Below are positions 1 to 19,918 of a stretch of 32,000 nucleotides of DNA, one piece after another; position 1 is the stretch's first letter; each line of letters starts with the position of its first letter. The stretch is from Thermodesulfobacteriota bacterium (GTDB taxonomy: Bacteria > Desulfobacterota > WTBG01 > JAGOGO01). The notes below the pieces were generated by a model, which was not told the origin of the DNA, did not search any database, and worked only from the letters and a program-made list of their open reading frames with translations. Position numbers and translations under genes: made by a program. The DNA lies in contig CP113000.1 in NCBI GenBank assembly GCA_026625185.1, positions 2,952,651 to 2,984,650 of the forward strand. Direction: 5' to 3'.

Positions 1-2321
1 CCGGTAGCTAAGATTACCACGCCGTGAGCTATTTCCTCTTCTTTACCCGGCGTGCGAATCCGGGTTTTAAACTTACCAACAAAGCCGGACAACTCTTCTA
101 TCTCGGCTTCAGTAAAGATTTTAATCTTCGGGTGTCCTTTTACCTTATCGATAAGATTTTCAAGGAATGACTTTGGGTCCTGCCCGTCAAGGGTATAGAA
201 TATGTTCCGGAGATTCCCCCCCAGTTCTTTTTCTTTTTCAATCAAGTAAGCATCAAAACCCTGCTCCGCCAGCGAGAGGGCCGCAGTCATCCCCGATACA
301 CCCCCACCAATAATGAGAGCAGATTGGTTTATGTCCATCAGGATCTCATGGATTGGTTCTAACCGGGTGGCTCGAGCCACCGCCATCCTGACCAAGTCAT
401 TAGCTTTTTCTGTGGCTTGCTTCGGGTTAGCAGCATGTACCCAGGAACACTGGTCACGGATATTAGCCATCTCAAAGAGGTACTTGTTGAGTCCGGCTTC
501 CCGAAGAGTATCCTGAAAAAGTGGCTCATGTGTGCGCGGGGAGCAAGAAGCCACAACCACGCGGTTCAATTGATGTTCCTTGAGGGCATTGATGATCTTA
601 AGCTGAGTGTCCGTGGAGCACGTATAAAGATTCTCTTCAGCGTAAGCAACAAAGGGAAGGGTTTTAGCATAGTCGGCAACCGAAGGAACATCAACCACCC
701 GAGCAATGTTGGTCCCGCAGCGGCATACGAATACCCCCACTCGCGGCTCCTCTTTGCTAATGTCCCTCTCTTGCGGATAGGTTTTCTCCCGAACCAAGCT
801 TCCCCGCACCTCTGATAACAGCTCCCCGGCAAGAGCTGCAGCGCTGCTGGACCCCATCACGGTCTCCGGGATATCCATGGGCGCTTCATAAGCACCCGCT
901 ACGTAAATTCCCGGTCGGGAAGTCTGATTAGGGGTGAATGTCTGGGTTTGACAGAATCCAAACCGGTTAACGTTAATTCCGATCATTTTAGCCAGCTCAA
1001 CAATCTCAGGATGAGGAACCAGTCCTACGGATAGGACTACGATATCAAACTCTTCCTCTTTGATCTCTCCGTTGTCGAGCGTATACGTGAGAAGGAGGTT
1101 TCCGCTCTGCTGAAGTTCTTTTATCCCCGATATAATCCCTTTGACATAACGAACCCCATAATTATTTTTGGCCGACTCGTAATAAAATTCAAAACCTTTT
1201 CCAAATGCCCGAATATCATTGTAAAAAATACTTGCCTCCAGCCCCGGCACATGATCAACCGCCATAATGGCTTCCTTGGTGGCATACATACAGCATACGG
1301 AGGAACAGTATTCATTTCCGCACAAGCTATCCCTCGAACCAACACACTGGATCCAAGCTATTTTTTTCGGTTCCTTATGATCCGAGGGTCTGATCACATG
1401 ACTCTGGTAAGGACCAGAGGATGAGAGAACTCGTTCAAATTGGATACTGGTCAGTACATTTTTCATCCGACCATGACCATATTCGTCCTTCAGTTGAGGA
1501 TTAAACTTTTCAAATCCTGGAGTAAGAATAATAGCCCCTACATCTACTTCATATATTTCGTCTTCCTGTTTATATTTAATAGCTTTAGCCTCACAGAAGC
1601 TCTCACACGCTTTACATGCATAATTTAAAAAATGCATACATGTCGTGCGATCAATAACCGGAGTTTTTGGTACTGCCTGGGGAAATGGTGAATAGATAGA
1701 TGGCCGCGAAACCAATCCCTCATCAAAAACAGAACTAATAGGTAGTGGTTTATTTTTGGAAAATTTTTCAAGATTAATAGCCCCAGTAGGGCAAATCATC
1801 TCACATGCTCCACAGGTGACACATATAGAGGAGTGCTCTCCGAATGGTGGAGAGACTATCCGGCTGGAACCGCGGTTTATAAAATTGATTGCGCCCACCC
1901 CCATAAGTTCCTGGCATACACGTACGCAGAGCCCGCATAGTACACACTTCTCCTCGTTTGGCTGAAAACGCTCATATCTTGATCTATCTATTCCAATTTC
2001 TTCAGCCAATTCCTTTATCTTAGGAACATCAGGACAACGCAATAGAAGTAATTCTATAACAAGTTTTCTTGCCTTGATTACCCGGTCCGAATTAGTTTTT
2101 ACTTCAAGTCCTTCTTCAACAACATAGGAGCAAGATGCGGATAGACCCTTTCGTGGACCACCCACAATCTCAACTACACATAGCCTGCAAGCTCCTTGAG
2201 GAGATAATGCCTTATAATAACAAAGGGTTGGGATCTTAATACGCAGCTTTTCTGCTGCTTGTAAGATTGTTGTACCCTCTTCTACCTCAAGCTTTTTACC
2301 GTCAATTGTTATATTAACCAT
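1..2321 (-). CDS. Multidomain Fe-S flavoprotein, partial (3' end off window). A NuoG/HydA-N-type [2Fe-2S] plus ferredoxin-like module is fused to the C-terminal portion of an HdrA FAD domain, followed by a second HdrA-like unit.
   Basis: Not in the ORF track, because there is no stop inside the window. Manual reverse-complement translation from the ATG at 2321-2319 gives MVNITIDGKKLEVEEGTTILQAAEKLRIKIPTLCYYKALSPQGACRLCVV (2Fe-2S, NuoG N-terminus type), then CVLCGLCVRVC and CVTCGACEMICPTGA cluster motifs. HdrA hallmarks follow: SIYSPFPQAVP, WIQCVGSRDSLCGNEYCSSVCCMYATKEA, DIRAFGKGFE. Next come VGVFVCRCGTNIARVVD, VVVASCSPRTHEPLF and ANIRDQCSWVH (HdrA N-domain type), and a second Rossmann motif ALIIGGGVSGMTAALSLAEQG. 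The frame is in register (2321-1343 is a multiple of 3) and must stay open to position 1; otherwise the track would have listed it. Confidence 0.85.
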   Translation of the reverse strand, partial: MVNITIDGKKLEVEEGTTILQAAEKLRIKIPTLCYYKALSPQGACRLCVVEIVGGPRKGLSASCSYVVEEGLEVKTNSDRVIKARKLVIELLLLRCPDVPKIKELAEEIGIDRSRYERFQPNEEKCVLCGLCVRVCQELMGVGAINFINRGSSRIVSPPFGEHSSICVTCGACEMICPTGAINLEKFSKNKPLPISSVFDEGLVSRPSIYSPFPQAVPKTPVIDRTTCMHFLNYACKACESFCEAKAIKYKQEDEIYEVDVGAIILTPGFEKFNPQLKDEYGHGRMKNVLTSIQFERVLSSSGPYQSHVIRPSDHKEPKKIAWIQCVGSRDSLCGNEYCSSVCCMYATKEAIMAVDHVPGLEASIFYNDIRAFGKGFEFYYESAKNNYGVRYVKGIISGIKELQQSGNLLLTYTLDNGEIKEEEFDIVVLSVGLVPHPEIVELAKMIGINVNRFGFCQTQTFTPNQTSRPGIYVAGAYEAPMDIPETVMGSSSAAALAGELLSEVRGSLVREKTYPQERDISKEEPRVGVFVCRCGTNIARVVDVPSVADYAKTLPFVAYAEENLYTCSTDTQLKIINALKEHQLNRVVVASCSPRTHEPLFQDTLREAGLNKYLFEMANIRDQCSWVHAANPKQATEKANDLVRMAVARATRLEPIHEILMDINQSALIIGGGVSGMTAALSLAEQGFDAYLIEKEKELGGNLRNIFYTLDGQDPKSFLENLIDKVKGHPKIKIFTEAEIEELSGFVGKFKTRIRTPGKEEEIAHGVVILAT

Positions 2322-2356
2322 GCGTTTCAACCCCATTTTTACTGCCTCAAGCTCAT

Positions 2357-4267
2357 CTACTTAACCATGATAGCGTTGGCTGGACAAGCTTCCCTACAAA
2401 GTCCACAATGGATACATTCGGTATAAACTATTTTGTGCGGCCTTTTTTTATCACCAGTAACCGCATTGGCTGGACAGTTCTTAAGGCATAGGCCACAACC
2501 ATTGCATTCGTCAGGATTGATCCAATATTCAAACAACCCCTTGCATACACCCGCCGGACACCTCTTATTTTTGATATGTTCTTCATATTCTTCCCGGAAG
2601 TAGCGAATAGTAGTTAATACTGGGTTCGGAGCAGTTCCTCCTAAAGCACACAAAGCGGAATCGATAATGATTTTGCTCATATCTTCTAAAAGTTCGATGT
2701 CGCCTTCCTTTCCACGGCCTTCGGTAATATCCATAAGAACCTCGAACATCCTCTTGGTACCTTCCCGGCAGGGTGTACATTTTCCACAAGACTCGTCTTT
2801 GGTAAAGGCGAGAAAATATTTTGCAACATTGACCATACAGGCAGTTTCGTCCATCACCACCATACCGCCTGATCCCATAATGGAACCAACCTCAGCCAAT
2901 TTATCGTAGTCAACCGGCAAATCCATAAGTGAATTCGGTATGCAGCCTCCAGAAGGGCCACCTGTCTGCACCGCCTTCAATTTTCTTTTGCCGGGAACTC
3001 CCCCTCCGATATCAAAAACCAATTCATTGAGGGTCATGCCCATAGGAACCTCTATCAAACCAGTGGTCTTAACATTTCCTACCATAGAAAAGATCATGGT
3101 TCCCTTACTCTTTTCCGTTCCAATTTCTGAGAACCAATCCGCACCACGGCTAATGATCAGTGGAATATTTGCCCAGGTTTTTACGTTGTTAATATTAGTA
3201 GGCTTACCCCACAGCCCCATCTGGGCAGGGAAAGGCGGACGCGGTCTGGGCTCGCCGGTAGTCCCTTCTATGGAGGCTATCAAAGCTGTTTCTTCACCAC
3301 ATACAAATGCCCCGGATCCACGTTCTATGGAAATATCAAAGTCGAAGCCAGAGCCAAGAATATTATTCCCCAGAAGCCCAAATTCACACGCCTGGCTCAA
3401 TGCCAGGATGAGTTTCTCGATTGCAAGGGGGTATTCGGCACGAACGTATATAATTCCATGCTGGGCGCCAATTGCATAAGCCCCGATAATCATTCCTTCT
3501 ATTACGAGATGAGGATTGCCCTCAAGGATGCTTCTATCCATATATGCACCCGGATCGCCCTCATCAGCATTACATATCACATACTTGGGGTCTCCCTTTG
3601 CTTCTCGAGCGAAACTCCATTTCCGCCCCGTCGGGAATCCAGCCCCTCCTCTACCTCTGATACCCGATCTCACAACTTCGTCAATAACCTTGTCCGGAGA
3701 AAGTTCTCCGAGCGCCTTAAACAGACCAAGGTATCCACCTGATGCAAAGTATTCCTCAATCTTATCCGGGTCTATGATTCCGCAATTTTGGAGCACCCTT
3801 TTATGTTGTTTCCTAAAAAACGGAATATCTTGATAAAATTGAACCTTCTCAAGTTCTTGAGGGAGGCCGTTCAGTTTGTATTTGTAGGTGATGTTTTCAA
3901 TTAGGTTGGGTTCCTCTTCAATTTTGCAAAGGGTATATTTAGGAATTATTTTACCCTCAGCAAGGGCCGAAATAATCTCTCGAGCTTTCTGAGTATCAAT
4001 TTGCTGATAAACTATTTTGGGCCATCCGAATTTCAAGATGTTAACCAAAGGCTCTTTTTGACAGATACCCATGCACCCGGTGGGAGTCACAATTATATTC
4101 AATCCTCGAGAACTAACTTCGTTACGGATCGCCTCTATAACCTCATCAGCGCCCGAAGCTCTGCCGCATGTGGCCATACCAATGGTCACTTTGGTTTCTG
4201 GTGGATAAATTGATTTAAGACCTTTTTCTTTGGCCTCAGAGAAATCTTTTTTGGCAGTAAGATGCAT
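2357..4267 (-). CDS. NuoF/HydB-like NADH-binding FMN Fe-S flavoprotein, with an N-terminal thioredoxin-like [2Fe-2S] domain and a C-terminal 2x[4Fe-4S] ferredoxin domain.
   Basis: 636-aa ORF with an ATG start and GAGGGG RBS. GIRGRGGAGFPTGRKW and CNADEGDPGA are NuoF FMN/NADH motifs, and ESCGKCTPCREG is the NuoF 4Fe-4S motif. The N-terminus has ATCGRASGA...GCMGICQKEP. The C-terminus has CNGCGLCLKNCP and CIHCGLCREACP. Confidence 0.9.
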   Translation of the reverse strand: MHLTAKKDFSEAKEKGLKSIYPPETKVTIGMATCGRASGADEVIEAIRNEVSSRGLNIIVTPTGCMGICQKEPLVNILKFGWPKIVYQQIDTQKAREIISALAEGKIIPKYTLCKIEEEPNLIENITYKYKLNGLPQELEKVQFYQDIPFFRKQHKRVLQNCGIIDPDKIEEYFASGGYLGLFKALGELSPDKVIDEVVRSGIRGRGGAGFPTGRKWSFAREAKGDPKYVICNADEGDPGAYMDRSILEGNPHLVIEGMIIGAYAIGAQHGIIYVRAEYPLAIEKLILALSQACEFGLLGNNILGSGFDFDISIERGSGAFVCGEETALIASIEGTTGEPRPRPPFPAQMGLWGKPTNINNVKTWANIPLIISRGADWFSEIGTEKSKGTMIFSMVGNVKTTGLIEVPMGMTLNELVFDIGGGVPGKRKLKAVQTGGPSGGCIPNSLMDLPVDYDKLAEVGSIMGSGGMVVMDETACMVNVAKYFLAFTKDESCGKCTPCREGTKRMFEVLMDITEGRGKEGDIELLEDMSKIIIDSALCALGGTAPNPVLTTIRYFREEYEEHIKNKRCPAGVCKGLFEYWINPDECNGCGLCLKNCPANAVTGDKKRPHKIVYTECIHCGLCREACPANAIMVK

Positions 4268-4283
4268 ATCAGTTTTCCCCTCA

Positions 4284-5177
4284 TCAGTACTTCATTAGAA
4301 TATCCATAACGGTATTATGTTTTACTCGAGAATAGACCCGCTGGTCAACTTTAATTACCGGGCTGAGTGCGCAACACCCGATACAACGTACCATTTCCAA
4401 GCTAAATTTTTTATCCTCAGTTGTTTGGCTTGGCTTAATACCCAATTCGTCTTCTAATTTCTGTAATATCCTCTCTCCACCCCGGACATAGCAGGCCGTG
4501 CCTATACAAACACTAAGCATATGTCGTCCGCGAGGCTTTAAACTAAAAAAGGCATAAAAAGTGGCCACCCTAAGGATATGGGCCAGTGGAATAAAAAGCT
4601 TAAAAGATATGTAAGTAAGGATCGGAGGTGGCAAATAATTAAATCTTCTATTTATATCCTGGAGGACTTTAATTAAAGGGTTTTTGTTTTCTTTATATTG
4701 ATTTAAAATTTCATCAACAACTGTCTTCTCCTCTCCAGGCAGGACAGGTTCGGGCACCTTTATCGAATCAATATACGCCCGGTTTCTAACAAGACAATGA
4801 TTGGAACACTCGCCGCAACCTGTGCAAAGTGATTCGTCAACTGACCGGGCCCCCCTTTTGATTGAAACCCTAAAATTACCTTTTTCCCCTTTGACATCAG
4901 AGAGATCTGAATATGTAAGATTCTCAATATTGGGATGTTTTCCACATTCCACAAGCTTGGGAGAGATGGTGCACATAGAGCAGTCATTGGTGGGAAAGGT
5001 CTTATCTAGCTGTGCCATCACCCCCCCAATAGCTGGCATATGTTCTACCAGATACACTTTGAATCCCGCATTGGCCAAATCCAAAGAGGCCTGCATCCCT
5101 CCAATCCCGCCTCCCACAACCATTACCGCTCCAACTTTGTTTCCGTTGTCTTTATTTGTATTGGACTCGATTACCAT
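4284..5177 (-). CDS. Fusion protein: HdrA N-terminal FAD-binding fragment (about 135 aa) joined to a NuoE/HydC-like thioredoxin-fold [2Fe-2S] domain.
   Basis: 297-aa ORF with an ATG start and GAGGGAAA RBS. The N-terminal part reads VMVVGGGIGGMQASLDLANAGFKVYLVEHMPAIGGVMAQLDKTFPTNDCSMCTISPKLVE...CTGCGECSNHC (canonical HdrA N-terminal motifs). The C-terminal part reads VATFYAFFSLKPRGRHMLSVCIGTACYVRGG...RCIGCCALSPV (NuoE Cx4C...Cx3C pattern). Confidence 0.85.
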   Translation of the reverse strand: MVIESNTNKDNGNKVGAVMVVGGGIGGMQASLDLANAGFKVYLVEHMPAIGGVMAQLDKTFPTNDCSMCTISPKLVECGKHPNIENLTYSDLSDVKGEKGNFRVSIKRGARSVDESLCTGCGECSNHCLVRNRAYIDSIKVPEPVLPGEEKTVVDEILNQYKENKNPLIKVLQDINRRFNYLPPPILTYISFKLFIPLAHILRVATFYAFFSLKPRGRHMLSVCIGTACYVRGGERILQKLEDELGIKPSQTTEDKKFSLEMVRCIGCCALSPVIKVDQRVYSRVKHNTVMDILMKY

Positions 5178-5193
5178 TTTCCCTCGCTATAAT

Positions 5194-6057
5194 TCACAAA
5201 CGTAATAATCCCTTTTCTTCAAGTAACCCACGGGGGTTTACGATATGCCGACCCAACCAAGAATCAATCCCGGATAGACCCATAGCCAGGCCCAAAAGTT
5301 CCGTGAAATAATAAACCGGAAGGTTGTAATTTTGTTGAAACACTTGGGCGGCCTCCGCTTCCCGGGTGTCGAGGTTAGCTTGACATAAAGGGCAGGCAGT
5401 TACAATACAATCTGCCCCAGCCTCCACGGCCATCAGAAAGAGCCGGTTAACCAAACGCCGAACTATATCAATCCGGGTAAGAGCCAAGCTCCCGCCACAG
5501 CAATCGGTTTTGAAGGACCACGGAATGGATTGAGCTCCTAACACCTCCATGAGCCTATCCATATTTTGAGGGTTTTCCGGATTCTTCGCATCAGTCATCT
5601 TAGGTGGACGAACGCTGAGGCATCCATAGTAACACGCTACCCGAAGACCATTAAGGGGCTTGGTAATCTTGTCTCTGATCTTCTTTAATAGTTCAGGATC
5701 ACAAAGATAATCCAAAAGATAATTTATTTTAATCCCCCCGGAATAGGTAAAGCCGAGATCAGGCTGAGAACCAGTTCCCTTCAACTTTTTCTCGGCAATT
5801 TTTAAGCGGACAAAACAGGCCGGGCAAGGCGTCACCATTTCGGTAGCTCCGATTTTTTCAGCTAATGCCAAGTTCCGACCCGGGAGTCCTATTGCCAGTG
5901 CCTCATTGGTAGTATGGCCTGAGCTAGCGCCGCAGCAGCTCCAATCGTCCAGATCTTCCAGCTGGATGTCTAAAATTTGACTAACCTCCTGAATCGACTC
6001 CCCATATTCCCGTCCGGTTCCATGGAGAGCGCATCCCGGATAAAAGCAGACCTTCAC
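5194..6057 (-). CDS. hdrB: Heterodisulfide reductase subunit B-like protein (two CCG domains).
   Basis: 287-aa ORF with a GTG start and GAGGT RBS. It contains FYPGCALHG, WSCCGASSGH, YYGCL and DCCGGS plus CPLCQANLD, the typical HdrB cysteine-rich CCG repeats. Confidence 0.85.
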   Translation of the reverse strand: MKVCFYPGCALHGTGREYGESIQEVSQILDIQLEDLDDWSCCGASSGHTTNEALAIGLPGRNLALAEKIGATEMVTPCPACFVRLKIAEKKLKGTGSQPDLGFTYSGGIKINYLLDYLCDPELLKKIRDKITKPLNGLRVACYYGCLSVRPPKMTDAKNPENPQNMDRLMEVLGAQSIPWSFKTDCCGGSLALTRIDIVRRLVNRLFLMAVEAGADCIVTACPLCQANLDTREAEAAQVFQQNYNLPVYYFTELLGLAMGLSGIDSWLGRHIVNPRGLLEEKGLLRL

Positions 6058-6063
6058 CTTATG

Positions 6064-6753
6064 CTACCTCGATTTTGTTTTTTTAAAAATGTTCCTAACC
6101 TCTTTAACCCTTCGGATGGACTTAGGCAATAGAGGAAGCTTTCCCTTAGTCAACATGGCCCAGCCAAGTTTAAGATCATTCATCAGTTCCCCTTTAGCCA
6201 TCTTATCTTTAAAGTCTCCGCTTTTTAAAGCGTAGGTTTGAAGCATACCTAATTCATAAACCCGACCTCGCCTCCAAATTGAATCTAAAAAAACCTGATG
6301 AAAAATTGGAGCGTTACGCTCTTTGTTCACGGTTTTTTCTTGCACCGATAATTGCCGAAGAGTGTCCATTACATGGGCAATGTCAATGTCATTGGGACAT
6401 CGCGTAGTACAGGTCTGGCATGACGCGCAAACCCATGGGGTAGAGCTACCGAGAATTTCATCTCTGAGCCCCATTTTAATGGCATGCATCAACTGATTGG
6501 GAAGAAAGTCCATGGCGAAAGTGACCGGGCATCCATTGGAACACTTTCGGCACTGGTAACAGACAGAAACTTTTTCCCGGCTTAGGGATTCCACTTCCTT
6601 TAAAAAAAAAGGTTTGGGTTCAAACCAAGGTTTGTTTTCTGTCCGCAGTGGTTTGATTGCTAAACTATTGAACCCTCTGGATGAACTTTCATCTTCCGGT
6701 GGAAGATTCGTCTTTTGAGACTTTTCTTCCTCTAAGCTGGTTTGTTCAGACAT
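6064..6753 (-). CDS. hdrC: Heterodisulfide reductase subunit C-like protein (2x[4Fe-4S]) with an acidic N-terminal extension.
   Basis: Motifs CYQCRKCSNGCPV and CASCQTCTTRCPNDIDI. The track ORF starts at a TTG (6774). I prefer the ATG at 6753 (MSEQTS...), which has a GAGGA RBS 5 nt upstream. Confidence 0.8.
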   Translation of the reverse strand: MSEQTSLEEEKSQKTNLPPEDESSSRGFNSLAIKPLRTENKPWFEPKPFFLKEVESLSREKVSVCYQCRKCSNGCPVTFAMDFLPNQLMHAIKMGLRDEILGSSTPWVCASCQTCTTRCPNDIDIAHVMDTLRQLSVQEKTVNKERNAPIFHQVFLDSIWRRGRVYELGMLQTYALKSGDFKDKMAKGELMNDLKLGWAMLTKGKLPLLPKSIRRVKEVRNIFKKTKSR

Positions 6754-6841
6754 AAAAATCCTCGTCTCAGGCAAGAAACAATTCTTGTCTGTCTCTTGGG
6801 GAGAGGCTATTTAAAGGCTCGGTTTAAATTTTCCCGGAGGC

Positions 6842-7732
6842 TTAAACTTCAAGCCAGGAATGAGAGTAAAGATTTTTACCCATCAACACGCGAGCGGTTT
6901 TAGCATAGTGGAGTTCTTTTTCACTTAATGAAGCGAGTGAAACTTCTTCACCATCCATAATTCTCCAGACCAAATTGTAAATTTCAGGCAAGCCATCATT
7001 CGCTAATTGAGCAAGCTCACTATCAAAAGCATCAACGATGGCTGAATAAAGGGTCTCGTATCTGTTCAACATAATCATATAGGTCCGATTGAGGATTCCC
7101 CTTAAATGATCGGGCGTGCCATTGGAAATATTCGATAACCCCACCGTGGTCTTAGACCCCGGGGCGATATCAGCGATCATGCTCATAAATTCGGTACACG
7201 AAAGCACCTGATTGATTTCCACGCAAATCGGAGAGGCGATCGGATCAACGTAAATGTCTTCATTGACCACTCCCGCCTGATTGGCAGCATACACCAATTC
7301 CGTGGCCATCAAAGCTCTTTCATTGGTATCCCGCGGCATGCCTTCTTTTCCCCAGAGCAGTGCGATCATCTGGGCGTTATACTTGGTTACCATCGGCAAC
7401 ATGATCGCCATGCGTTCGGGCTGCAAGGAGATGGAATTGATGATTGGTCTCGCTTTGGTTACCGCCTTAAGACCCGCTTCCATGGCCACGGGATTGGTGG
7501 TATCTAAGGATAAAGGAAGATCTGATACTTCTTCAACCGTCTTGACCATCCATTCCATGAGCTGGTCACCCTCTTTTCGCGCTGGCCCTATATTGATGTC
7601 AAGAACTTGGGCTCCATTTTGCTGTTGTTTAATCGCCATCTCTTGAATCGGCTTGGGGTCACGACCCTTCATGGCGGGGCCTAAAGTTTTAGACATCACA
7701 TTAATGCTTTCGGCAATTCGCGTTATTTTCAT
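6842..7732 (-). CDS. acsE: Methyltetrahydrofolate:corrinoid/iron-sulfur protein methyltransferase (pterin-binding domain).
   Basis: 296-aa ORF with an ATG start and AGGAGG RBS. The pterin-binding fold sequence is INVMSKTLGPAM...AQVLDINIGPA...SLDTTNP...INSIS, and the gene sits next to acsC/acsB. Confidence 0.85.
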   Translation of the reverse strand: MKITRIAESINVMSKTLGPAMKGRDPKPIQEMAIKQQQNGAQVLDINIGPARKEGDQLMEWMVKTVEEVSDLPLSLDTTNPVAMEAGLKAVTKARPIINSISLQPERMAIMLPMVTKYNAQMIALLWGKEGMPRDTNERALMATELVYAANQAGVVNEDIYVDPIASPICVEINQVLSCTEFMSMIADIAPGSKTTVGLSNISNGTPDHLRGILNRTYMIMLNRYETLYSAIVDAFDSELAQLANDGLPEIYNLVWRIMDGEEVSLASLSEKELHYAKTARVLMGKNLYSHSWLEV

Positions 7733-9139: not shown

Positions 9140-11350
9140 TTAAACGTTCATAATCGATTCCATAGAAAGAGCGGGATGCCCTTTTTCTTTAAGCCAGGGA
9201 AGAATTTCTTCCTGCGTAATGCCTACGGTCTCATCAGCAATCATATCCGCGAAGTTTTCAATGCCAAGCTCTTTGGCGCGGGCATTTATTTTATCCCGCA
9301 AGGTTTCTTTCAGGGCTTTCGGGAGCCATACCAGTCGCTTAATACCCCCTTCAGCATTGATAAATTTTTTTGAGGTGATGTAATGTTTGCTGTGGCCCAC
9401 AAACCCGGGAGTCACTTTCCCGCCGCCTACCTGGCCGGCCAGCGAGGTGAATTTCATTCCGCAAGGAGTATCAATTGAACTATCCCGATCAACAGTCATA
9501 ACTCCATTACATTGATCCAACACCGCCGCGATACACTCAAAGCACCCGCATGAGGTCATCGGAGTAACCATAATGCTATACGCGCTTGCTTCAAGAACAT
9601 TGCCACGAGAAGCTCGAGCAAGAAAATCGTTTACCCCATTCCATTTTCCCAGACGGGCATCAATAACCTCACCTTTCTGGATGGGTTGATTGGGTCCGGT
9701 CGGATTAATTTCTTTAGAGGCTTTGCAATCAAGCCAGTTATATGCGCCGCACAGCCCGGTTCGCTCCGGAGTTACCACACACACATGGGAAGGAGCAAAT
9801 GACTGACAGAGGGTGCAGGAATAGTATGTTTCTTCAGTTTCATCGGTCATTCCTGCAATCCGTTCGTCGCGAATCGTAAAAGTATGCCGTGCCTTCTGGG
9901 TAAGTTCTTTAACCTTATCTTCTTCTGTGTAAATCTGAACCTGGACCTTATCCAGGATCGCGCCAAAATCTTTGTGGTACATGGAATGAAGAATCTTACC
10001 AAGATCTTTTAACGTAAATCCTTTCTCCACCGCCTGCTTGGCGATCCGAATCCAGGCGACATCCCGCTGTCCGATATGCATCAATCCCTGGGCATAGTTG
10101 ATAAGATGGTGGATCTGCCGTTCCAAAATCGGAAGAAAGTCCTCTTGCATCTGACGACCGGCAACCATGACATAAATACCAAGGGGAATACGACTTCCCG
10201 CCGGAACATCAGTAATGTCGGGACCAAAAAGCTCAACTTTTCCGTCTTCAACTTCATTCATGTTTTTCATCTCAGAAAATTCGGTCATCTGACTCCGGCC
10301 ACCACCGCATTCAAGATGAATATCGGCCCCCCGAACCCGCTCACCTTCAAAGGCCGCTCCATACGCAAGCGGAATAGGAACCTCAGTAACCGCAACTTTA
10401 AGACCCCGCACTTCGATTGCTTTCTGCACCATTTCCTCATAGGGAACATTGGAGATAACATGCTCATAGGTGCAAATCCCGGTGGGAAGAACTTCAGGAA
10501 TCGGGGTATCAGCAATAACCGGAAACCCATAATTAATCGCTCCGGCCGCATTTGCATACCACTCATCCGATACAAACCCCATCGCCAAAACAAAGGCGAA
10601 AATCCGGTCTTTATTGTAGATAAGCACCTTACGAAAATCTCCTGGTTTTGCCCCTCCAAAGGACATGGCAGCGCGAGTGGCAAAACCCAGCGCAAAAACC
10701 GCGGCATTCACATTGGGACCAAAAGAAACCAAACGGGTGTTCCACCCGATTTGCACCCCTGCCTTTACCAGCTGCTCAGACATGCGCACCCCATTATTAT
10801 CTGAACCCATAAACACATAGAGATTTTTCAGCTGGAGCTCATGGGCGATTTTTGCCGCAATCTCTTCGCTGGGCGGAGCTCCAAGAATAGCCGCAAACCC
10901 GGGAGCGGTTCCATCAACAAATTCCACTCCTCTTTTTCGCATAATCACATCATCAGCCGCTCCGAGCCAAATATTGTTGTCGGTAACCTCTTCACCGCGG
11001 AGATAAAAGTCGGGATGCTCAAGATAACGGATGGCTTCTTCAATTTCCTCGACCCACAGGGTAGCCATTCCCGCATCAAGTGCCGGAGCTAAATAGGGTA
11101 AATGGTGTTGTTCTTTAACTGCAGGGGGTAAAATTTCCCGGCAGCGCCTTAAGACCCGCTGGCAATCACCTAAAGTTTTGACCGGTATTCCGGTAATTCC
11201 ATAAATTATCGGAAGATAATAGGCAGTATCCGGAAACCCGATTTCCTGATTCGGTCCATACTTTTCAAGTACTTCCTTATATTTTTTTTCAACTCGAGTA
11301 ATAATTTTATGAGCGCCACGAATGGCAGCTGAAGCAATAATTTTGGACAC
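9140..11350 (-). CDS. acsB: Acetyl-CoA synthase catalytic subunit (ACS, A-cluster protein).
   Basis: 736-aa ORF with a GTG start and AAGGAGG RBS. It has the typical ACS N-terminus (IIASAAIRGAHKII...FPDTAYYLP) and the A-cluster region YYSCTLCQSFAPSHVCVVTPERTGLCGA...SCGCFEC. Confidence 0.92.
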   Translation of the reverse strand: MSKIIASAAIRGAHKIITRVEKKYKEVLEKYGPNQEIGFPDTAYYLPIIYGITGIPVKTLGDCQRVLRRCREILPPAVKEQHHLPYLAPALDAGMATLWVEEIEEAIRYLEHPDFYLRGEEVTDNNIWLGAADDVIMRKRGVEFVDGTAPGFAAILGAPPSEEIAAKIAHELQLKNLYVFMGSDNNGVRMSEQLVKAGVQIGWNTRLVSFGPNVNAAVFALGFATRAAMSFGGAKPGDFRKVLIYNKDRIFAFVLAMGFVSDEWYANAAGAINYGFPVIADTPIPEVLPTGICTYEHVISNVPYEEMVQKAIEVRGLKVAVTEVPIPLAYGAAFEGERVRGADIHLECGGGRSQMTEFSEMKNMNEVEDGKVELFGPDITDVPAGSRIPLGIYVMVAGRQMQEDFLPILERQIHHLINYAQGLMHIGQRDVAWIRIAKQAVEKGFTLKDLGKILHSMYHKDFGAILDKVQVQIYTEEDKVKELTQKARHTFTIRDERIAGMTDETEETYYSCTLCQSFAPSHVCVVTPERTGLCGAYNWLDCKASKEINPTGPNQPIQKGEVIDARLGKWNGVNDFLARASRGNVLEASAYSIMVTPMTSCGCFECIAAVLDQCNGVMTVDRDSSIDTPCGMKFTSLAGQVGGGKVTPGFVGHSKHYITSKKFINAEGGIKRLVWLPKALKETLRDKINARAKELGIENFADMIADETVGITQEEILPWLKEKGHPALSMESIMNV

Positions 11351-11393
11351 TGTAATTCCTCCTTATTTTTTGCTTAAAAAATTGACGTGCCTA

Positions 11394-13388
11394 TTAAACC
11401 GCTTCCAATTCACGCCTCATTGCCATATCATAAAGTACTCGCTCTCGAGCTTTATCGATTCCGAGTGCTTTCCGTTTTTTATCGATATGGGTTATCATCT
11501 TCTTTGCCATCTCGATGGGATCGGTGGCAAAATCCCACATTCCCCCTACTTCTTGTTCTAAGCCTTTGAACAAATACTCCGTTAATACGTCACACCCCAC
11601 AGTAGGAAAAGTGGTCCCAAAAATCGTGTAGACGCCGGAGGCAACAAAATACTGGCCAATGGCAACCGCCTTTTCACTCATCCACTCGGGGGCGCACCCG
11701 GCGGCCGGCAAATCACTGATGTCATCTCCCAAACCGCCTTCTTTCACTACCGCAGTGGCGGCTATGAGGATTCGGCTGTTATCAACGCACGACCCCATGT
11801 GAAGTACCGGCGGAATACCCACCGCTTCACACACCTCTGCCAACCCGCTGCCCGCATATTGTGCTGCGGCTTCGGGAAGAAGCAGTCCCGCTTTTCCACA
11901 GGCCATGGCCGAACATCCGGTGGAAAGAACAATGACGTCGTTTTTAATCAACTCTTTAATCAAGGTCAAGTGGGCTTGGTCATGAACGGTCCGCGCATTG
12001 TTGCACCCTACCACACCAGCGATGCCGCGAATTCTTCCCCCGATAATATTATCATTGAGAGGTTTGTAAGAAGCTCTAAACATCCCCCCCAAGAGATAAT
12101 TAATCGTCTCATGGGCAAAACCTACGACGGTATCACATTTTTGACCGGGTATTTTGATTTTACTCGTGCGTTTTGGAAAATTTTCAATTGCCGCTCTCAC
12201 AATCTCTTTAGCCGTCTCAAGGGGATTGTGCTCTTCAAATTGGATATGCCGCGCCCCGCTAATTTTAGCTTTCGGAGAGGTTGTTATAATTTCGGTATGA
12301 TAGCACTGGGCAACATCATGAATGGACTGCATTTCACACTGAACATCCACCACCATTGCGTCAATCACTCCGGTCACGATTGCAAGCTCTTGCTGAAGAA
12401 AGTTCCCTGCAATCGGTATCCCGTGACGCATCAAGATCTCATTAGCCGTACAGCACATACCGGCCAGGTTGATCCCTTTAGCTCCTTTCGATTTGGCAAA
12501 GGCGATCATGTCTGGCTCTTGGGTCGCCACCACCACCATTTCGGAAAGAAGCGGATCATGACCATGAACAATAATGTTGATCTCATCTTCTTTTAAAACC
12601 CCCAGGTTGATAGATCCTTTGATGGGCACAGGGGTCCCAAACAAAATATCCTGGAGTTCAGTAGCCAGCATAGAACCTCCCCATCCGTCAGCCAGGGCTG
12701 CTCGGCTTCCCTGGGCGATGAGGTTTTTGTAGTCTTGATCTACCCCCATATGGGTACGGTGCATAAGTTCAACGATTTCACGATCGATCCCTCTGGGAAT
12801 CAGGTCGTATTTGCGCCAGATTTCCTGACGTTTCAGAGGAGCGCGTTTCATCATCACCAGCCCCCCTTCCTGTTTTCCCCACTCGGCACCTGCCAGTTCA
12901 CCTACTTTAATCGCAATCTCTTCAATCTCCATATCCTCGATGTCAATGCCAAAATCCAAGGCAAGTTGCAAGAGCTTAGGCACGTCTTTTACTCCATATC
13001 CGGGAATTTCTCCTTTGGCTGCTAATAAAAATACTTCTGCCACTCCCCGGCCGTGATCAGAGTGGGAAGCTGACCCGCCGGCGATCATCCTCACAAAGTT
13101 CCGGGCAGTGATAGTCTCGATGGTAGCCCCGCACACCCCAACCCGTTTTTTTTCTTCCCCTTCAGCTTTCTTTTTGGGTGCCGGAAGCCGGCACGGTCCC
13201 ATCGCGCAGGTTCGGCAACAGCTTCCTTCCACCCCAATCGGACAGGGCTTCATGGCCTCAGCCCGGTCGAATATTAAACTCACCCCATCGGCTTTAGCCT
13301 TTTCGATCATCTCCTGGCTCGCTTCGCAAACCGTCAGCAGAGAATTAACTTTTTCTTCTTTTGTTTTTTTCATTTCGTCTGCCATCAT
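11394..13388 (-). CDS. acsA: Carbon monoxide dehydrogenase catalytic subunit (Ni-Fe CODH, ACS-associated).
   Basis: 664-aa ORF. The B/D-cluster region reads CPIGVEGSCCRTCAMGPCRL, and HGHDPLL, CCTANE and GSCVDNSR are CooS-type C-cluster ligand contexts. Tandem ATG ATG start after an AGGAGG RBS. Confidence 0.92.
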   Translation of the reverse strand: MMADEMKKTKEEKVNSLLTVCEASQEMIEKAKADGVSLIFDRAEAMKPCPIGVEGSCCRTCAMGPCRLPAPKKKAEGEEKKRVGVCGATIETITARNFVRMIAGGSASHSDHGRGVAEVFLLAAKGEIPGYGVKDVPKLLQLALDFGIDIEDMEIEEIAIKVGELAGAEWGKQEGGLVMMKRAPLKRQEIWRKYDLIPRGIDREIVELMHRTHMGVDQDYKNLIAQGSRAALADGWGGSMLATELQDILFGTPVPIKGSINLGVLKEDEINIIVHGHDPLLSEMVVVATQEPDMIAFAKSKGAKGINLAGMCCTANEILMRHGIPIAGNFLQQELAIVTGVIDAMVVDVQCEMQSIHDVAQCYHTEIITTSPKAKISGARHIQFEEHNPLETAKEIVRAAIENFPKRTSKIKIPGQKCDTVVGFAHETINYLLGGMFRASYKPLNDNIIGGRIRGIAGVVGCNNARTVHDQAHLTLIKELIKNDVIVLSTGCSAMACGKAGLLLPEAAAQYAGSGLAEVCEAVGIPPVLHMGSCVDNSRILIAATAVVKEGGLGDDISDLPAAGCAPEWMSEKAVAIGQYFVASGVYTIFGTTFPTVGCDVLTEYLFKGLEQEVGGMWDFATDPIEMAKKMITHIDKKRKALGIDKARERVLYDMAMRRELEAV

Positions 13389-13426
13389 TTACCTCCTAAA
13401 CTTTCATTGAGTAAAAAATTTACCCA

Positions 13427-14956
13427 TCAGGCCGGTGTTTTTCTTTTTTCACTACCATATACTTCGGCAGAATACCAGTAACGCAAGCCTGTCTTTAGAT
13501 ATTGAATCATTTCTTCCTTATCTCTCAGTTTTTGTCTCCAGTCTTCTTTCCTTTCGGGCGTTCCTGCTTCATAACTCGCACCCAAAAGCTCAACCTGTTT
13601 GCCGGAGAAATCCTGCTTCTTTTCTTTTTGATAATTAAATTCCCCAATATTATCATCCGGCGCTGCCCAGGAATCCAGAATTTTAACCGGGGGAACTTCT
13701 TTGGCTTTCTTTTTCTTTTTTTCTTTTACACCCGCTTCTTCCGAAACCACGGCAGGCTGGACTTCAGCCTTTTTAGCTTCCAAAAATGCGGAGAAGGTCT
13801 TCACCGCGTCGGGTGAGAGCGTTATTCCACCTTCTCCTTCCTCAGAAACCTTGACCAGCGCAAGCACATGGTCTGAGCCGACGGTCAAAGGAGCATTCAT
13901 GATTTTAGCAATATCAATATCAAGTTTAATTCCCCGGGGCAGGTTGGCAACCGCAGCAACCGCACCAGGAACAGCTTTTGAAACCTCTTTAGAAACCGCA
14001 ACCAACGCAGGTCGGGAAACTCCACTCATATCAGCAATATAGTTTCTCACCGACTCAATCGCTTTCGGATGACGCATTACCAAAATGTCAGCCCCGGCAA
14101 GCAATAACGTTACCGCGGTCATCGCTTCGAGAGTAACCCCTCGGTTTAAAGCTTTTCCCATGAGGGGATTATCTGCAAGTTTAGCTTCTTTGGTTTTCCA
14201 AACTTCATCCGCCAAATTAGAAATCATCGGAAACTGCAATTTTTCATCTTGCTGGGTAAGCGCGGCCTGACGGATCCGTTCCATAACCGAATAGCTGTAT
14301 TCAATCCCGTATCCGATAGCTCCGGTAGTGGGATCAATGAGAATATTTTCCGGCGGCACTCCCAGGTTGCCGAGTAAGATATTAAGCTGCTTCGCTAAGT
14401 TAATATCAATCGGAGAACTGGCGACTACCATATGGTTATAGGCAAGCGCTTGAGCGCCAATTTGTTTATGGTTTCCTTCTTGCACGGGTCCTAAAGCCAC
14501 CTTTTTACCTGAGCATGCCATGGCAACCTTGCGAAGCACTTCCGCATCTTTCTCCACGTTGGTTGATCCCCACACGATAAGCGGAATATCAATTGCTTCC
14601 AGCACTTGTTTGGCAGTTTCAGCAGCCTCATCAGCGCTTCGGTTGAGCCCATTGGGGTCAGTGCTTTTTAACCACAAGAATATGATATCAGCCTTATAAA
14701 CATCCTGGGCTTTTTTCGCCCACCCTACCGGATTTCCTAAAACATCTTTATAAGGCTCCAAGCAGGCGTCCGCCCATTCTTCAGGAGTAAAGTCCGGAAC
14801 CTGAATAGCTATCTTGGGTACATGAGGTATTTCCCCTTCAAAGGCGTAAAAGGGATACGAATCCCCCCCACCTACAATCACTTTTTTTCCGTTTTTTTCC
14901 AAGGTAATGGGACGAATGCTGCCAGTATAAGCCAGCGTCGGTATTTTAAAAGCCAT
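13427..14956 (-). CDS. acsD: Corrinoid iron-sulfur protein, small subunit (CFeSP delta, CdhD type), with a roughly 195-aa C-terminal extension.
   Basis: 509-aa ORF with an ATG start and GGGAGG RBS. Residues 1 to about 312 match the AcsD pattern (VGGGDSYPFYAFEG, SPIDINLAKQLNILL, DPTTGAIGYGIEYSYSVMERIR, LVMRHPKA). The remainder is an extra Lys/Glu-rich region. Confidence 0.85.
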   Translation of the reverse strand: MAFKIPTLAYTGSIRPITLEKNGKKVIVGGGDSYPFYAFEGEIPHVPKIAIQVPDFTPEEWADACLEPYKDVLGNPVGWAKKAQDVYKADIIFLWLKSTDPNGLNRSADEAAETAKQVLEAIDIPLIVWGSTNVEKDAEVLRKVAMACSGKKVALGPVQEGNHKQIGAQALAYNHMVVASSPIDINLAKQLNILLGNLGVPPENILIDPTTGAIGYGIEYSYSVMERIRQAALTQQDEKLQFPMISNLADEVWKTKEAKLADNPLMGKALNRGVTLEAMTAVTLLLAGADILVMRHPKAIESVRNYIADMSGVSRPALVAVSKEVSKAVPGAVAAVANLPRGIKLDIDIAKIMNAPLTVGSDHVLALVKVSEEGEGGITLSPDAVKTFSAFLEAKKAEVQPAVVSEEAGVKEKKKKKAKEVPPVKILDSWAAPDDNIGEFNYQKEKKQDFSGKQVELLGASYEAGTPERKEDWRQKLRDKEEMIQYLKTGLRYWYSAEVYGSEKRKTPA

Positions 14957-16648: not shown

Positions 16649-18412
16649 TTAAAAAAGCCCCGTCACCTTTCCGGTATTAACATCGACATCAACTTTTCTA
16701 AAGGCCGGGTCGGAACTCGTTCCCGGCATCAGGCTGATCGTGCCAGCGCAGGGACATAAAAACTTGGCGCCCGAGTAAATTAAAACGTCTCGGATCGGCA
16801 AGGTCCAACCCTTAGGAACACCTTTCACAGCCGGATCATGAGTTAGGCTGAGATGGGTTTTAACCATCATCGTGGCATAATCATTATATTTGGAATCACT
16901 TTCGAGCATCTTCGCTTTAGCCTCAGCATCCGGCAACCAGGAAACCCCATCCGCACCGTAGACCTCTTTGGCGATCAAATCAACTCGTTCCCTAAGTTTC
17001 ATCTCCAAAGGATACAAAAATTTAAAATGGGATTCATCTTTACAAGCCTCAATTATTGCATCAGCAAGCTCCAAAGCTCCTTCTCCTCCTTTGAGCCAGT
17101 GTTCTGACTCCGCGCACCTTGCTCCAGCAGCTTCTGCGGCCTTCCTTACCATTGTTACCTCTGCATCCGTATCAGTATGGAAGCGATTAACGCACACTAC
17201 AGGATTTATCCCTGATTTGCGGATGGTATTGATATGGTGCACCATATTCTCCACACCTTTTTCCAATAATTTCAGGTTTTCTTTCTTGTAGTCTTCAGGA
17301 AGGGGAATTCCTGCTACCACCTTTGGTCCACCTCCATGCATTTTAAGGGCTCGAATGGTACTGGTGAGCACTGAAACATGGGGCTTAAGCCCACTGTATC
17401 GGCACTTTACGTTCCAAAATTTTTCAAATCCAATATCCGCCGCAAAACCGCTTTCGGTAACATGGTAATCAAACATTTTCAACCCGATCCGGTCGGCGAT
17501 AATCGATGATTGCCCCACAGCTATATTGGCAAAAGGTCCGGCATGAACCATGCACGGCTGATACTCGGCACTGCTCATCAAAGTAGGATTAATGGTGTTT
17601 CGCATCCAAGCGGTCATGGCACCACCCACTCCCAGGTCACCAGTAGTTACCGGTTTCCCACTTTTATCAAAAGCGACGGTAATGTTATTCAGTCTCTCCC
17701 TTAGGTCAGCCAAGTCTCGAACAATAGAAAGAATAGCCATACACTCCGAACTCACGGCAATCCCGAATTTGGACTGCATACAAAAGCCGTCCATGCGACC
17801 GCCTAATCCAATTATAATATTTCTCAAGCTCTGAGCACAAAAATCCATGATCCATCCCATTTCAACCCTGGTAGGATCAACATCCAAACGCCGCATCTTG
17901 GTAAGCCTTTGGAGCTGCTCATCATTGTAATTACGCTCATGTTGCATCCTAGACGTAAGAGCAACCATGGCAAGGTTATGGGCGTTCACAATGTCATTGA
18001 TATCACCCGTAAGACCTAAGGAAAATTCGGTCATGGGTATAAGAAGAGCATTGCCGCCGCCAGCGGCTGTGCCTTTAATATTCATGGTCGGGCCACCGGA
18101 TGGCTGCCTAATACACCCACCAACATTTTTACCGCGTTTGCCAAGTCCTTCAAGAATTCCCAGGGTGGTTGTACTCTTTCCTTCTCCGAGAGGAGTCGGT
18201 GTAATCGCAGTAACTTCGATGTACTTACCATCGGGCTTGTCCTTCAACCGATTGATGATTTTCATGAAATCAAGCTTACAAAGCTTCCCCATCGGAATAA
18301 TCTCATCCTTTTGAAGGCCTAATTTTTCTTTCCATACGTCCGGTGTGGGCATATTTACTTCAGCGACTTCTGATATTTGCCAATCGGCCATTTTAGTTGC
18401 ATCATATGACAT
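16649..18412 (-). CDS. fhs: Formate-tetrahydrofolate ligase.
   Basis: 587-aa ORF with an ATG start and AGGAGGGA RBS. It contains [13 protein letters not shown], plus a length and C-terminus typical of Fhs. Confidence 0.93.
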
Positions 18413-18456
18413 AAGTATCCCTCCTCTTAGGTTAAAAAAAGTTTTAGTAAAAAAAA

Positions 18457-18700
18457 TTGATCACGTGGTTATTTCGATCAAAATTTGTGATCATTAGTTA
18501 TTATGACATTAATTATTATGACCTAAATTATTATGACATAAGTTATTATGATAATAAAGTTATTAGCTAATTTAATCCCATTCATAAAAAAGGCAAAAAA
18601 TTCAACAAAATTTATTACTTTAAAACCTAACAGTGCAAAATTTATTATGATTTTTGTCATTATAGATAATGATTTTTGTCATTTTAAGATAACATTGTCG
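18457..18700 (-). promoter_or_regulatory. Repeat- and palindrome-rich 5' control region of the fhs/acs operon.
   Basis: Seen directly. Four exact-core 15-bp tandem units (AGTTATTATGACATT, AATTATTATGACCTA, AATTATTATGACATA, AGTTATTATGATAAT at 18496-18555) are followed by a degenerate unit running to 18570. A fifth TTATTATGA core lies at 18642-18650. ATGATTTTTGTCATT occurs twice (18647-18661 and 18669-18683). TGATCA occurs at 18458 and 18488, CACGTG at 18462, and TTGATC-N13-GATCAA at 18457-18481. Confidence 0.5.
18659..18687 (-). promoter_or_regulatory. Candidate sigma70-type promoter for the fhs operon: -35 TTAAAA, 17-nt spacer, -10 TATAAT.
   Basis: The minus strand reads TTAAAA-TGACAAAAATCATTATC-TATAAT. 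The -10 hexamer is perfect and the -35 is weak. The two AATGACAAAAATCAT repeats overlap the spacer and the region just downstream of the -10. This implies a leader of about 240 nt. Hexamer matches in AT-rich DNA are weak evidence. Confidence 0.3.
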
Positions 18701-18750
18701 TCAGTCCCATTTAAAACAGGTTGACATCCTGGGCATAAAGAACAAATTCA

Positions 18751-18798
18751 AATTTTAAAAAAGTAAATCCCGTTAGAAGACTTTCTAACGGGATTTAC
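18751..18798 (-). terminator. Rho-independent terminator downstream of the PEGA lipoprotein gene.
   Basis: A perfect 16-bp stem (GTAAATCCCGTTAGAA at 18763-18778 pairing with TTCTAACGGGATTTAC at 18783-18798) with a 4-nt loop. On the minus strand it is followed immediately by TTTTTTAAAATT. Confidence 0.7.
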
Positions 18799-18860: not shown

Positions 18861-18889
18861 TAAACAAAAACAGTTTAATGCGACAAGTT

Positions 18890-19426: not shown

Positions 19427-19508
19427 TGCTTTTTTCTCCCTTTGTTTGGTTTCCGATCAACACAAATATTTTAACGGGTTCCTGTCGGAACCTATTGGTT
19501 TTAATTAT

Positions 19509-19874: not shown

Positions 19875-19918
19875 GGTTTTGCCTCACCCTACAAACAATT
19901 GCTTTAATTAACCTTAGG

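Follow-up and report, generated by a model that had tools for sequence, protein, structure and literature searches.

Within a 32,000-nucleotide stretch of a Thermodesulfobacteriota bacterium genome (contig CP113000.1, forward-strand positions 2,952,651 to 2,984,650; hereafter the window), five genes that directly follow acsE encode HdrC, HdrB, an HdrA fragment fused to a NuoE-like domain (called P3), a NuoF/HydB-like protein (P4) and a NuoG-N-like domain fused to the remainder of HdrA plus a further HdrA unit (P5). The NuoE, NuoF and NuoG-N components constitute a trio with the sequence hallmarks of the bifurcating (Bfu) family. This trio sits inside the inserted ferredoxin domain of the first HdrA unit, which is therefore spread over two genes. 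We lean towards the view that the products form a Moorella-type Hdr–MetVF reductase in which the Bfu trio replaces a GltD-like module, with two bifurcation modules as in benzoyl-CoA reductase.

Among the redox steps of the Wood–Ljungdahl pathway, the methylene-tetrahydrofolate (methylene-THF) reductase reaction is the one least understood. The second redox partner of Hdr-type methylene-THF reductases (MTHFRs) has been a question since 2014, as has methyl-THF oxidation in organisms that run the pathway in reverse. The variant in the window, into which a nicotinamide (NAD(H)) site of its own and a candidate ferredoxin site are built by fusion, leads to a testable proposal for both the partners and their wiring. 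The topology is unusually readable because gene fusion links the modules at one defined position. If the proposal is correct, the enzyme would be the second natural case, after benzoyl-CoA reductase, of two distinct bifurcation modules in one enzyme.

One HdrA unit is divided between two fusion proteins

Domains in the window proteins were called with Pfam and NCBIfam, and their boundaries were confirmed by PDB sequence searches that matched HdrA, HydB, HydC and BfuA chains of known structure. An initial annotation, made from the sequence without database searches, had listed the five products in the order given above, and every one of its domain assignments was reproduced by these tools. All genes of the acs/Hdr/Bfu region lie on the minus strand, and the five Hdr/Bfu open reading frames (ORFs) are separated from one another by 6-20 nt.

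The P3 gene (4284-5177, minus strand) encodes a fusion protein of 297 amino acids. Its residues 17-133 (4779-5129, minus strand) form the N-terminal piece of HdrA unit 1 and carry the GxGxxG signature for flavin adenine dinucleotide (FAD), the DKTFPTNDCSMC motif and, from the inserted ferredoxin domain of HdrA, the first Cys motif (C118, C121, C124 and C128). These residues match HdrA2 141-258 (E = 1.4e-44) and residues 146-258 of the HdrA chain 5odc_A (E = 6e-40). The remaining part of P3, residues 154-297 (4287-4718, minus strand), is a NuoE/HydC (BfuC)-like domain (2Fe-2S_thioredx, E = 4.4e-45) that has HydC 8a6t_C as its best PDB match (E = 1e-39) and retains the [2Fe-2S] ligands C224, C229, C265 and C269, all four of which are invariant.

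The second Cys motif of the same inserted ferredoxin domain is found on the other fusion protein. The P5 gene occupies positions 1-2336 of the window (minus strand), where it runs off the left end, and encodes the NuoG-N domain, the rest of HdrA unit 1 and HdrA unit 2. The C-terminal piece of unit 1 (825-1760, minus strand; P5 residues 193-504) aligns with residues 253-562 of 5odc_A (E = 2e-76) and contains the second Cys motif (C233, C241, C244 and C248); it completes the FAD domain and has both the HA4 cluster motif CVGSRD..YCSSVCC and the residue pair E301/K354. Thus, P3 supplies HdrA residues 146-258 and P5 supplies residues 253-562, which makes unit 1 contiguous with no gap, and the split point lies immediately behind the first of the two inserted-domain Cys motifs.

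In a ferredoxin fold with two [4Fe-4S] clusters, each cluster is ligated from both Cys motifs. Because the two motifs lie on separate chains and the fold uses both, P3 and P5 should share the clusters, such that both inserted-domain [4Fe-4S] clusters would be ligated jointly by the two proteins.

The second HdrA unit begins at P5 residue 529, which corresponds to HdrA residue 2. Its start, comprising the N-terminal MvhD-binding domain and the FAD domain, lies at 1-752 (minus strand) and aligns with 5odc_A 2-236. The unit continues to residue 1088 in an overlapping 145-kb contig from the Joint Genome Institute (JGI), called L001, and overall aligns with HdrA 4-243 and 323-654, skipping residues ~244-322. 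Unit 2 therefore carries the N-terminal (MvhD-docking) domain, to which MvhD passes its electrons in the solved enzyme, as well as the FAD and C-terminal ferredoxin domains, and has no inserted ferredoxin domain. Unit 1 has the FAD and inserted ferredoxin domains and is devoid of the N- and C-terminal ones. As judged from these alignments, the two units of the tandem are complementary. Both also carry the HA4 cluster motif and equivalents of the Glu/Lys pair E356/K409 of Methanothermococcus thermolithotrophicus (M. thermolithotrophicus), which serves as a recognition criterion for bifurcating HdrA flavins (PMC9430772).

Physical coupling of the Hdr and Bfu modules, as proposed in the initial annotation, is strongly implied by this arrangement, because one HdrA unit is divided between two chains of which one is fused to NuoE and the other to NuoG-N. 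Adjacency of genes alone is no proof of a complex, and one could imagine that an Hdr complex and an independent enzyme of the NuoEFG type have had their genes interleaved by chance. We consider this very unlikely, given that neither HdrA fragment is a full FAD domain, that each is covalently joined to a Bfu subunit and that the arrangement is kept across phyla. Moreover, the isolated fragment lacks a confident fold: in an AlphaFold2 monomer model of P3, the predicted local distance difference test score is 80-94 for the NuoE half and 34-60 for the HdrA fragment. The model is consistent with what would be expected of half a domain, although it falls short of proof. The simpler description of these proteins as ordinary separate HdrA and NuoEFG homologues is contradicted by the fusions.

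Hallmarks of the bifurcating type in the NuoEFG trio

P4 (2357-4267, minus strand; 636 amino acids; WAC07329.1) is a Bfu-type NuoF/HydB (BfuB) with Complex1_51K (E = 7e-46) and NADH_4Fe-4S (E = 2e-33) domains followed by a C-terminal domain with two [4Fe-4S] clusters. It is similar from end to end to the bifurcating NiFe-HydB of Acetomicrobium mobile (A. mobile; 7t2r_B, E = 6e-230), with which the B1 [4Fe-4S] motif ESCGKC..C is aligned. The B2 ligands C477, T515, H564, C570 and C575 align with A. mobile C438, C476/T, H525, C531 and C536, and the B3 and B4 clusters are represented by CxxCxxCxxxC motifs at residues 588 and 618. Equivalents of A202 and M204 are also kept in the alignment to 7t2r_B. 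For the B5 thioredoxin-like [2Fe-2S] domain, the 7t2r_B alignment begins at 31/12 and Pfam returns a weak 2Fe-2S_thioredx match at residues 25-102; the B5 ligand set was judged from the alignment only.

The NuoG-N/HoxU (BfuA)-like domain forms residues 1-190 of P5 (1767-2336, minus strand; Fer2_4, E = 3e-20; HoxU, E = 8e-38), with Fer2_4 and two [4Fe-4S] clusters occupying residues 5-190. Its best PDB match is 9mqx_A, the BfuA/WorA subunit of WorABCSL (E = 1e-42). The domain has [2Fe-2S] ligands at C39, C50, C53 and C69 plus two [4Fe-4S] clusters, and no His-ligated cluster, and hence corresponds to a 'Type 2' BfuA (A1, A2 and A4). Taken by its ligands and alignments, the NuoEFG part of the system is of the bifurcating (Bfu) type.

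These features bear on an alternative in which the NuoEFG trio is a non-bifurcating NADH diaphorase that simply replaces the GltD input. Bifurcation or confurcation would then occur only at the HdrA flavin, with its partner at HdrB or MvhD, and ferredoxin would not be a substrate. We regard this as a credible yet less probable explanation. It draws on the position of the trio, which is nearly at the GltD insertion site of Moorella-type HdrA, on relatives that exchange the ferredoxin-like C terminus of NuoF for GltD, and on the BamGHI subcomplex, in which 68% of the clusters are reduced by NADH alone (bioRxiv 10.64898/2026.04.10.717634). Set against this, P4 retains all of the Bfu-specific features, namely the B2 His/Cys/Thr ligands, B3/B4 and the N-terminal [2Fe-2S] domain, that are absent from non-bifurcating NuoF homologues (PMC9304861).

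The operon continues into mvhD, metV and metF

Genes upstream of hdrC are fhs, a cooC-type ATPase gene, folD, acsD, cooS/acsA, acsB, acsC and acsE. The last of these (6842-7732, minus strand), for the methyl-THF:corrinoid methyltransferase, has a Pterin_bind domain in the identical L001 gene and is separated from hdrC by 67-88 nt. The Hdr/Bfu genes had been placed at the end of the acs operon. They do lie directly after acsE, but the operon runs on.

L001 matches the window at 100% identity over 15,177 nt and reaches further left, with the left end of the window at L001 position 15177. There, P5 is completed at 1088 amino acids, its gene extending 931 nt past the end of the window, and the genes that the initial annotation had wondered about do come next: mvhD, metV (DUF5981) and metF (MTHFR), followed by a DUF3786 gene and pgk. 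The mvhD-metV-metF genes are spaced by gaps of 4-37 nt or overlap. Their position directly downstream of P5 substantiates the suggested link to methylene-THF. The DUF3786 gene (L001 18166-18807) starts 13 nt past metF, has no NCBIfam match and may be part of the operon.

The product of mvhD receives a FlpD (MvhD/FlpD) domain call, and its best NCBIfam match is VhuD, which we take to be a selenoprotein. The gene lies just left of the window (L001 16146-16595) and contains an in-frame TGA (VAG-TGA-MEGECHF), at which the JGI annotation splits it into ORFs of 66 and 82 amino acids. In six homologues the TGA aligns with Cys (VAG-C-xxG-x-CH), and MvhD therefore probably contains selenocysteine. This call depends on the six-homologue alignment because the hairpin after the TGA is not statistically distinctive: in a search for a selenocysteine insertion sequence, the 62 nt past the codon fold no better than shuffled controls (z = -0.49). 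Selenoproteins reported elsewhere include BamF of benzoyl-CoA reductase and several of the MvhD paralogues in Desulfobacterium autotrophicum (D. autotrophicum), and MvhD and HdrA proteins that contain selenocysteine are common in Desulfobacterota (PMC2702500, PMC4046663). For MetV, a PDB sequence search gave no solved relative.

The two genes between acsE and P3 complete the Hdr portion. HdrB (5194-6057, minus strand) has two CCG domains (E = 1.9e-24) and, in its alignment with 5odc_B (E = 2e-37), keeps 10 of 10 Cys residues of both non-cubane [4Fe-4S] clusters. The HdrC-like protein (6064-6774, minus strand) is a protein with two [4Fe-4S] clusters (Fer4_8/Fer4_17; TIGR03290 HdrC, E = 5e-19, under the curated cut-off) and has CxxCxxCxxxC motifs at residues 65 and 109 of its 229-residue form. 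All NCBIfam Hdr matches of the window proteins fall far under the curated cut-offs. The HdrC start is ambiguous between TTG at 6774 and ATG at 6753, the latter being picked by JGI, and ~60 acidic, Ser-rich residues precede the first cluster motif (window 6600-6774, minus strand).

The fusions are conserved and recur across phyla

One possibility raised at the outset was that the contig might be chimeric across 1700-5200. The identity with L001, together with the presence of the exact 297-residue P3 on at least five independent contigs, one of them a metagenome-assembled 3.3-Mb NCBI contig with proteins WAC07329-WAC07349, establishes that it is not, and mis-assembly is ruled out by these independent assemblies and by orthologues.

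The split Hdr-Bfu genes are conserved and under purifying selection. Relative to the orthologues in L089, which are 75% identical, the ratio of nonsynonymous to synonymous substitution rates (dN/dS) is 0.078 for P3 and 0.084 for P4, and the cofactor ligands are invariant in homologue sets of 14 and 44 (44 for the P3 ligands). More than 120 clusters at 90% identity contain the HdrA'-NuoE fusion with near-full coverage, and ~8 full-length representative clusters hold it in a library of 1.84 billion proteins clustered at 50% identity. The NuoG-N::HdrA fusion is seen in many bacterial and several archaeal phyla. Carriers of fusion proteins are uncultured members of Desulfobacterota, Planctomycetota, Chloroflexota, Aminicenantes, Asgard and other archaea.

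An artefact or a decayed locus, whether through mis-assembly or through an hdrA gene broken by insertion and no longer functional, is accordingly given almost no weight. Its one attraction is that the HdrA'-NuoE gene has no NCBI protein accession, which has to be set against at least five identical independent assemblies, more than 120 clusters that share the fusion, dN/dS values of ~0.08 and invariant ligands. Indeed, NCBI protein numbering passes directly from WAC07329 (NuoF) to WAC07330 (HdrB), with the P3 gene lying between them, so the deposited genome apparently lacks a protein record for this gene, which was probably taken for a pseudogene. Because of this, metabolic reconstructions overlook the NuoE fusion. 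Fusion proteins are wrongly labelled simply 'NuoE', '2Fe-2S protein' or 'FAD-dependent oxidoreductase', and P3 homologues elsewhere carry the names 'NuoE' or 'FAD-dependent oxidoreductase' only.

Gene order is also kept in other genomes, as the initial annotation had suggested looking for. A metagenome-assembled genome (MAG) of Deltaproteobacteria (L089/L090, 75% identity) retains the eight-gene core including metVF, although outside any acs operon. Planctomycetota MAGs (L017, L062, L047 and L048) carry the cluster hdrC-hdrB-hdrA-mvhD-metV-metF, in which HdrA is a single 1509-residue protein with a GltD/NfnB-like module (Fer4_20 and Pyr_redox_2) inserted into its unit 1. This insert is flanked by the same two Cys motifs and lies ~30 residues further on than the Bfu trio; nuoE and a nuoF-GltD fusion are located 3' of metF. 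The arrangement agrees with the published domain plan of Moorella thermoacetica HdrA (Kremp et al., PMC9430772) and with the 'HdrL' type of D. autotrophicum. The same HdrA split as in the window occurs in L005 (Pirellulaceae) and in L085 and L087/88 (Dehalococcoidia), but there NuoF is fused to GltD. These NuoF-GltD proteins of ~1066 amino acids (L005 10903-14103; L085 10872-14072; L087 3292-6495; L017 ~10640-13936) have a GltD/NfnB-like part (Fer4_20 plus Pyr_redox_2) in place of the C-terminal ferredoxin-like domain with two [4Fe-4S] clusters. They resemble the Stn/NfnABC transhydrogenases, though the fusion partner differs.

A different client is encoded in two loci. In L085 (17315-20848) and in the Promethearchaeota (Asgard) MAG L091 (9832-13491), which also has the split-HdrA/NuoEFG core, genes for the small and large subunits of a [NiFe] hydrogenase follow mvhD, at the place where metV-metF sit in the window lineage. 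The split-HdrA/NuoEFG core thus looks like a modular hub for different client enzymes.

A Chloroflexota contig (L092; 463-7062 and 8745-11160) encodes NuoE, NuoF, a 507-residue NuoG-N::HdrA protein, a separate 561-residue HdrA, MvhD and an HdrC-like protein. Its layout is like that of the bam genes of benzoyl-CoA reductase, except that NuoG-N is joined to an HdrA part in L092 whereas BamI is a separate small subunit. The L092 genes adjoin a gene of the aldehyde:ferredoxin oxidoreductase (AFOR) family and a polyferredoxin gene, and the contig stops just upstream, before any partner N-terminal HdrA fragment could appear.

A proposed three-armed HdrA hub and its possible reactions

Under the reading that we favour, a reductase with the Bfu trio in place of GltD, the proteins would form one assembly around a three-armed HdrA hub. 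Through the first arm, MvhD (probably with selenocysteine) and the N-terminal domain of unit 2 would connect to MetVF. Through the second, HA4 and the C-terminal ferredoxin domain would lead to HdrC and HdrB, where a thiol/disulfide-competent site is predicted. Through the third, the inserted ferredoxin domain would pass electrons along the NuoG-N cluster chain to or from the Bfu core, where the NAD(H) site and a candidate ferredoxin site lie. The clusters ligated jointly by P3 and P5 would clamp the NuoG-N chain onto this HdrA arm, which is of low potential in solved Hdr complexes, and the Bfu core would provide the NAD(H) site at flavin mononucleotide (FMN) and the ferredoxin site via B2-B4.

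The net reaction that appears most likely, and which we put forward with lower confidence, is the reversible conversion 2 NADH + Fd(ox) + CH2=THF <-> 2 NAD+ + Fd(red) + CH3-THF, where Fd is ferredoxin. It would involve two serially coupled bifurcation modules, as class II benzoyl-CoA reductase (BCRII) does. The same equation has long been put forward for the Moorella enzyme and gives the best thermodynamic balance; in the window system, sites for the two soluble partners would be built in.

Several points weigh against this reductase. In MvhADG-HdrABC and in BCRII, electrons leave at low potential through the inserted-ferredoxin arm and enter on the MvhD side (bioRxiv 10.64898/2026.04.10.717634); the fusion places Bfu on the exit arm, whereas Bfu of BCRII feeds the entry arm. 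Because Bfu is attached to the opposite arm, the series model of BCRII cannot be transferred unchanged. Ferredoxin coupling is not constant in the family, given that the NuoF C terminus of L005, L085 and L087 is GltD-like. Furthermore, the core may be a general hub because a [NiFe] hydrogenase replaces MetVF in relatives, the intact HdrB site is not accounted for, and in Sporomusa ovata (S. ovata) MetVF is only loosely bound to the Hdr proteins.

The last three of these observations also speak for a different assignment, in which the Hdr-Bfu core is a general NADH/ferredoxin:disulfide hub like FlxABCD-HdrABC that acts on a disulfide, possibly of a protein, at HdrB. MetVF would then be a loose client or merely co-located. 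This seems improbable to us. Both non-cubane clusters are indeed intact in HdrB, and in L085 and L091 the core is followed by the hydrogenase rather than by metVF. However, mvhD-metV-metF always come directly next, with overlapping genes, in the window lineage, L089/L090, L005, L017 and L062. In addition, the homologue from Moorella thermoacetica (M. thermoacetica) is reported (Mock et al. 2014, as cited in PMC5861303 and PMC8515935) to purify as MetFV-HdrABC-MvhD.

A more speculative version, which we think rather unlikely, takes the wiring literally. Bfu is connected to the low-potential exit arm, MetVF occupies via MvhD the place held by the hydrogenase in the canonical enzyme and in L085 and L091, and the HdrBC disulfide site is retained. 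On this view, methyl-THF (~-200 mV) would act as mid-potential donor in a new flavin-based bifurcation. Electrons would then flow exergonically to an HdrB disulfide, possibly a DsrC-like one, and endergonically to NAD+/ferredoxin via Bfu. If true, this would explain how acetate-oxidizing anaerobes pass the barrier of methyl-THF oxidation. In reverse, a missing thiol co-reductant would explain why NADH alone fails in Hdr-type methylene-THF reduction. The 'split HdrA::Bfu' arrangement would then represent a widespread, unrecognized redox hub of bacteria and archaea.

Comparison with known systems

A close counterpart of the favoured reductase is MetFV-HdrABC-MvhD of M. thermoacetica, whose HdrA domain plan includes a GltD-interrupted unit 1 (Kremp et al., PMC9430772). 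Both systems share the order hdrC, hdrB, hdrA, mvhD, metV, metF beside acs genes, and both have a tandem HdrA in which an NAD(P)H module breaks up the ferredoxin domain of the N-terminal unit. In addition, the C-terminal unit has no inserted ferredoxin domain in either system and both units bear the E/K flavin markers. They differ in the inserted module, which is a single GltD-like NAD(P)H/FAD module in Moorella and NuoE, NuoF and NuoG-N here. The trio also lies ~30 residues earlier, right after the first Cys motif, and hdrA is broken into separate genes. The window version thereby adds FMN, ~9 Fe-S clusters and a potential ferredoxin site, and its MvhD is probably a selenoprotein. A GltD/Fer4_20 module within a single HdrA polypeptide was not detected by Pfam or NCBIfam in the window, whereas L017 and L062 do have it.

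BCRII of Geobacter metallireducens, Bam[(BC)2DEFGHI]2, similarly combines HydBC/Bfu-type BamGH plus BamI with a fused HdrA dimer (BamE) in one complex, uses the selenoprotein BamF as an MvhD-like adaptor and BamD as an HdrBC-like arm, and provides a precedent for confurcation followed by bifurcation. Coupling of HydBC/Bfu and HdrA in series was proposed for Bam-Bfu in 2022 (PMC9304861) and is reported, on the basis of cryo-electron microscopy and enzymology, in a 2026 preprint (bioRxiv 10.64898/2026.04.10.717634). In contrast with the system described here, the output of BCRII is the tungsten enzyme BamBC rather than MetVF, and neither the operon nor the window encodes BamB-type AFOR domains. 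BamI is a separate small subunit whose electrons go to the C-terminal ferredoxin domain and to the entry arm at MvhD, whereas NuoG-N and NuoE are fused into the inserted domain here. Finally, BamD is fused and its distal cluster is degenerate, whereas HdrB and HdrC are separate here and have all Cys residues intact.

An 'X type' MTHFR, uncharacterized, has been described from Dethiosulfatarculus sandiegensis, in which NuoEFG homologues are encoded upstream of metFV (Yi et al. 2021, PMC8515935). In the sections of that source devoted to it, the type has a loose, purely genomic definition, NuoEFG-homologue genes upstream of metV-metF, which also describes L001. The same sections call it widespread in Desulfobacterales and Chloroflexi, phyla that also hold the fusion proteins, and speak of 'NuoEFG homolog' genes, with no mention there of Hdr parts or fusions.

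More distant resemblances are found elsewhere. HdrL of D. autotrophicum (PMC2702500) likewise combines HdrA with an NAD(P)H-oxidizing module and MvhD, but this module is GltD and there is no link to metVF. The nuoEFG-mvhD-hdrA operons of Desulfotignum phosphitoxidans (PMC4046663) are reported as gene neighbourhoods only and also have no metVF link. With the Bfu family (HydABC, NiFe-HydABCSL, NfnABC/Stn and WorABCSL), the window system shares a BfuBC core with all conserved clusters and a Type-2 BfuA. It is atypical in that BfuC and BfuA are each joined to an HdrA half and the third-substrate side is another bifurcating flavoprotein. The words MetF, methylene and tetrahydrofolate have zero occurrences in the text of the 2022 Bfu catalogue as available for its main article and supplement (PMC9304861), which implies that the catalogue describes no such class. 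Canonical MvhADG-HdrABC has a single complete HdrA with MvhAG, unlike the split tandem here, and the operon has no hydrogenase genes.

The initial annotation did not recognize this architecture as a characterized enzyme, and a search of the PDB and the open-access literature likewise turned up none with exactly these features. The literature search also returned no description of an HdrA split at its inserted ferredoxin domain with Bfu components on both halves. The system is not a full match, by all defining features, to any established characterized enzyme family. Coupling of the two module types is not new, but the splice topology and the MetVF output appear to be undescribed.

Other features of the locus

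Scanning the operon for promoters and terminators yielded chance-level counts and nothing informative, and Rfam and tRNA scans of the window gave no matches. Neither an RNA family nor a tRNA was detected in the GC-poor stretch at window positions 18000-20000. In this stretch, which lies between fhs and rnhB, GC content falls to ~36% around genes for a PEGA-domain protein and a UPF0102/NERD protein.

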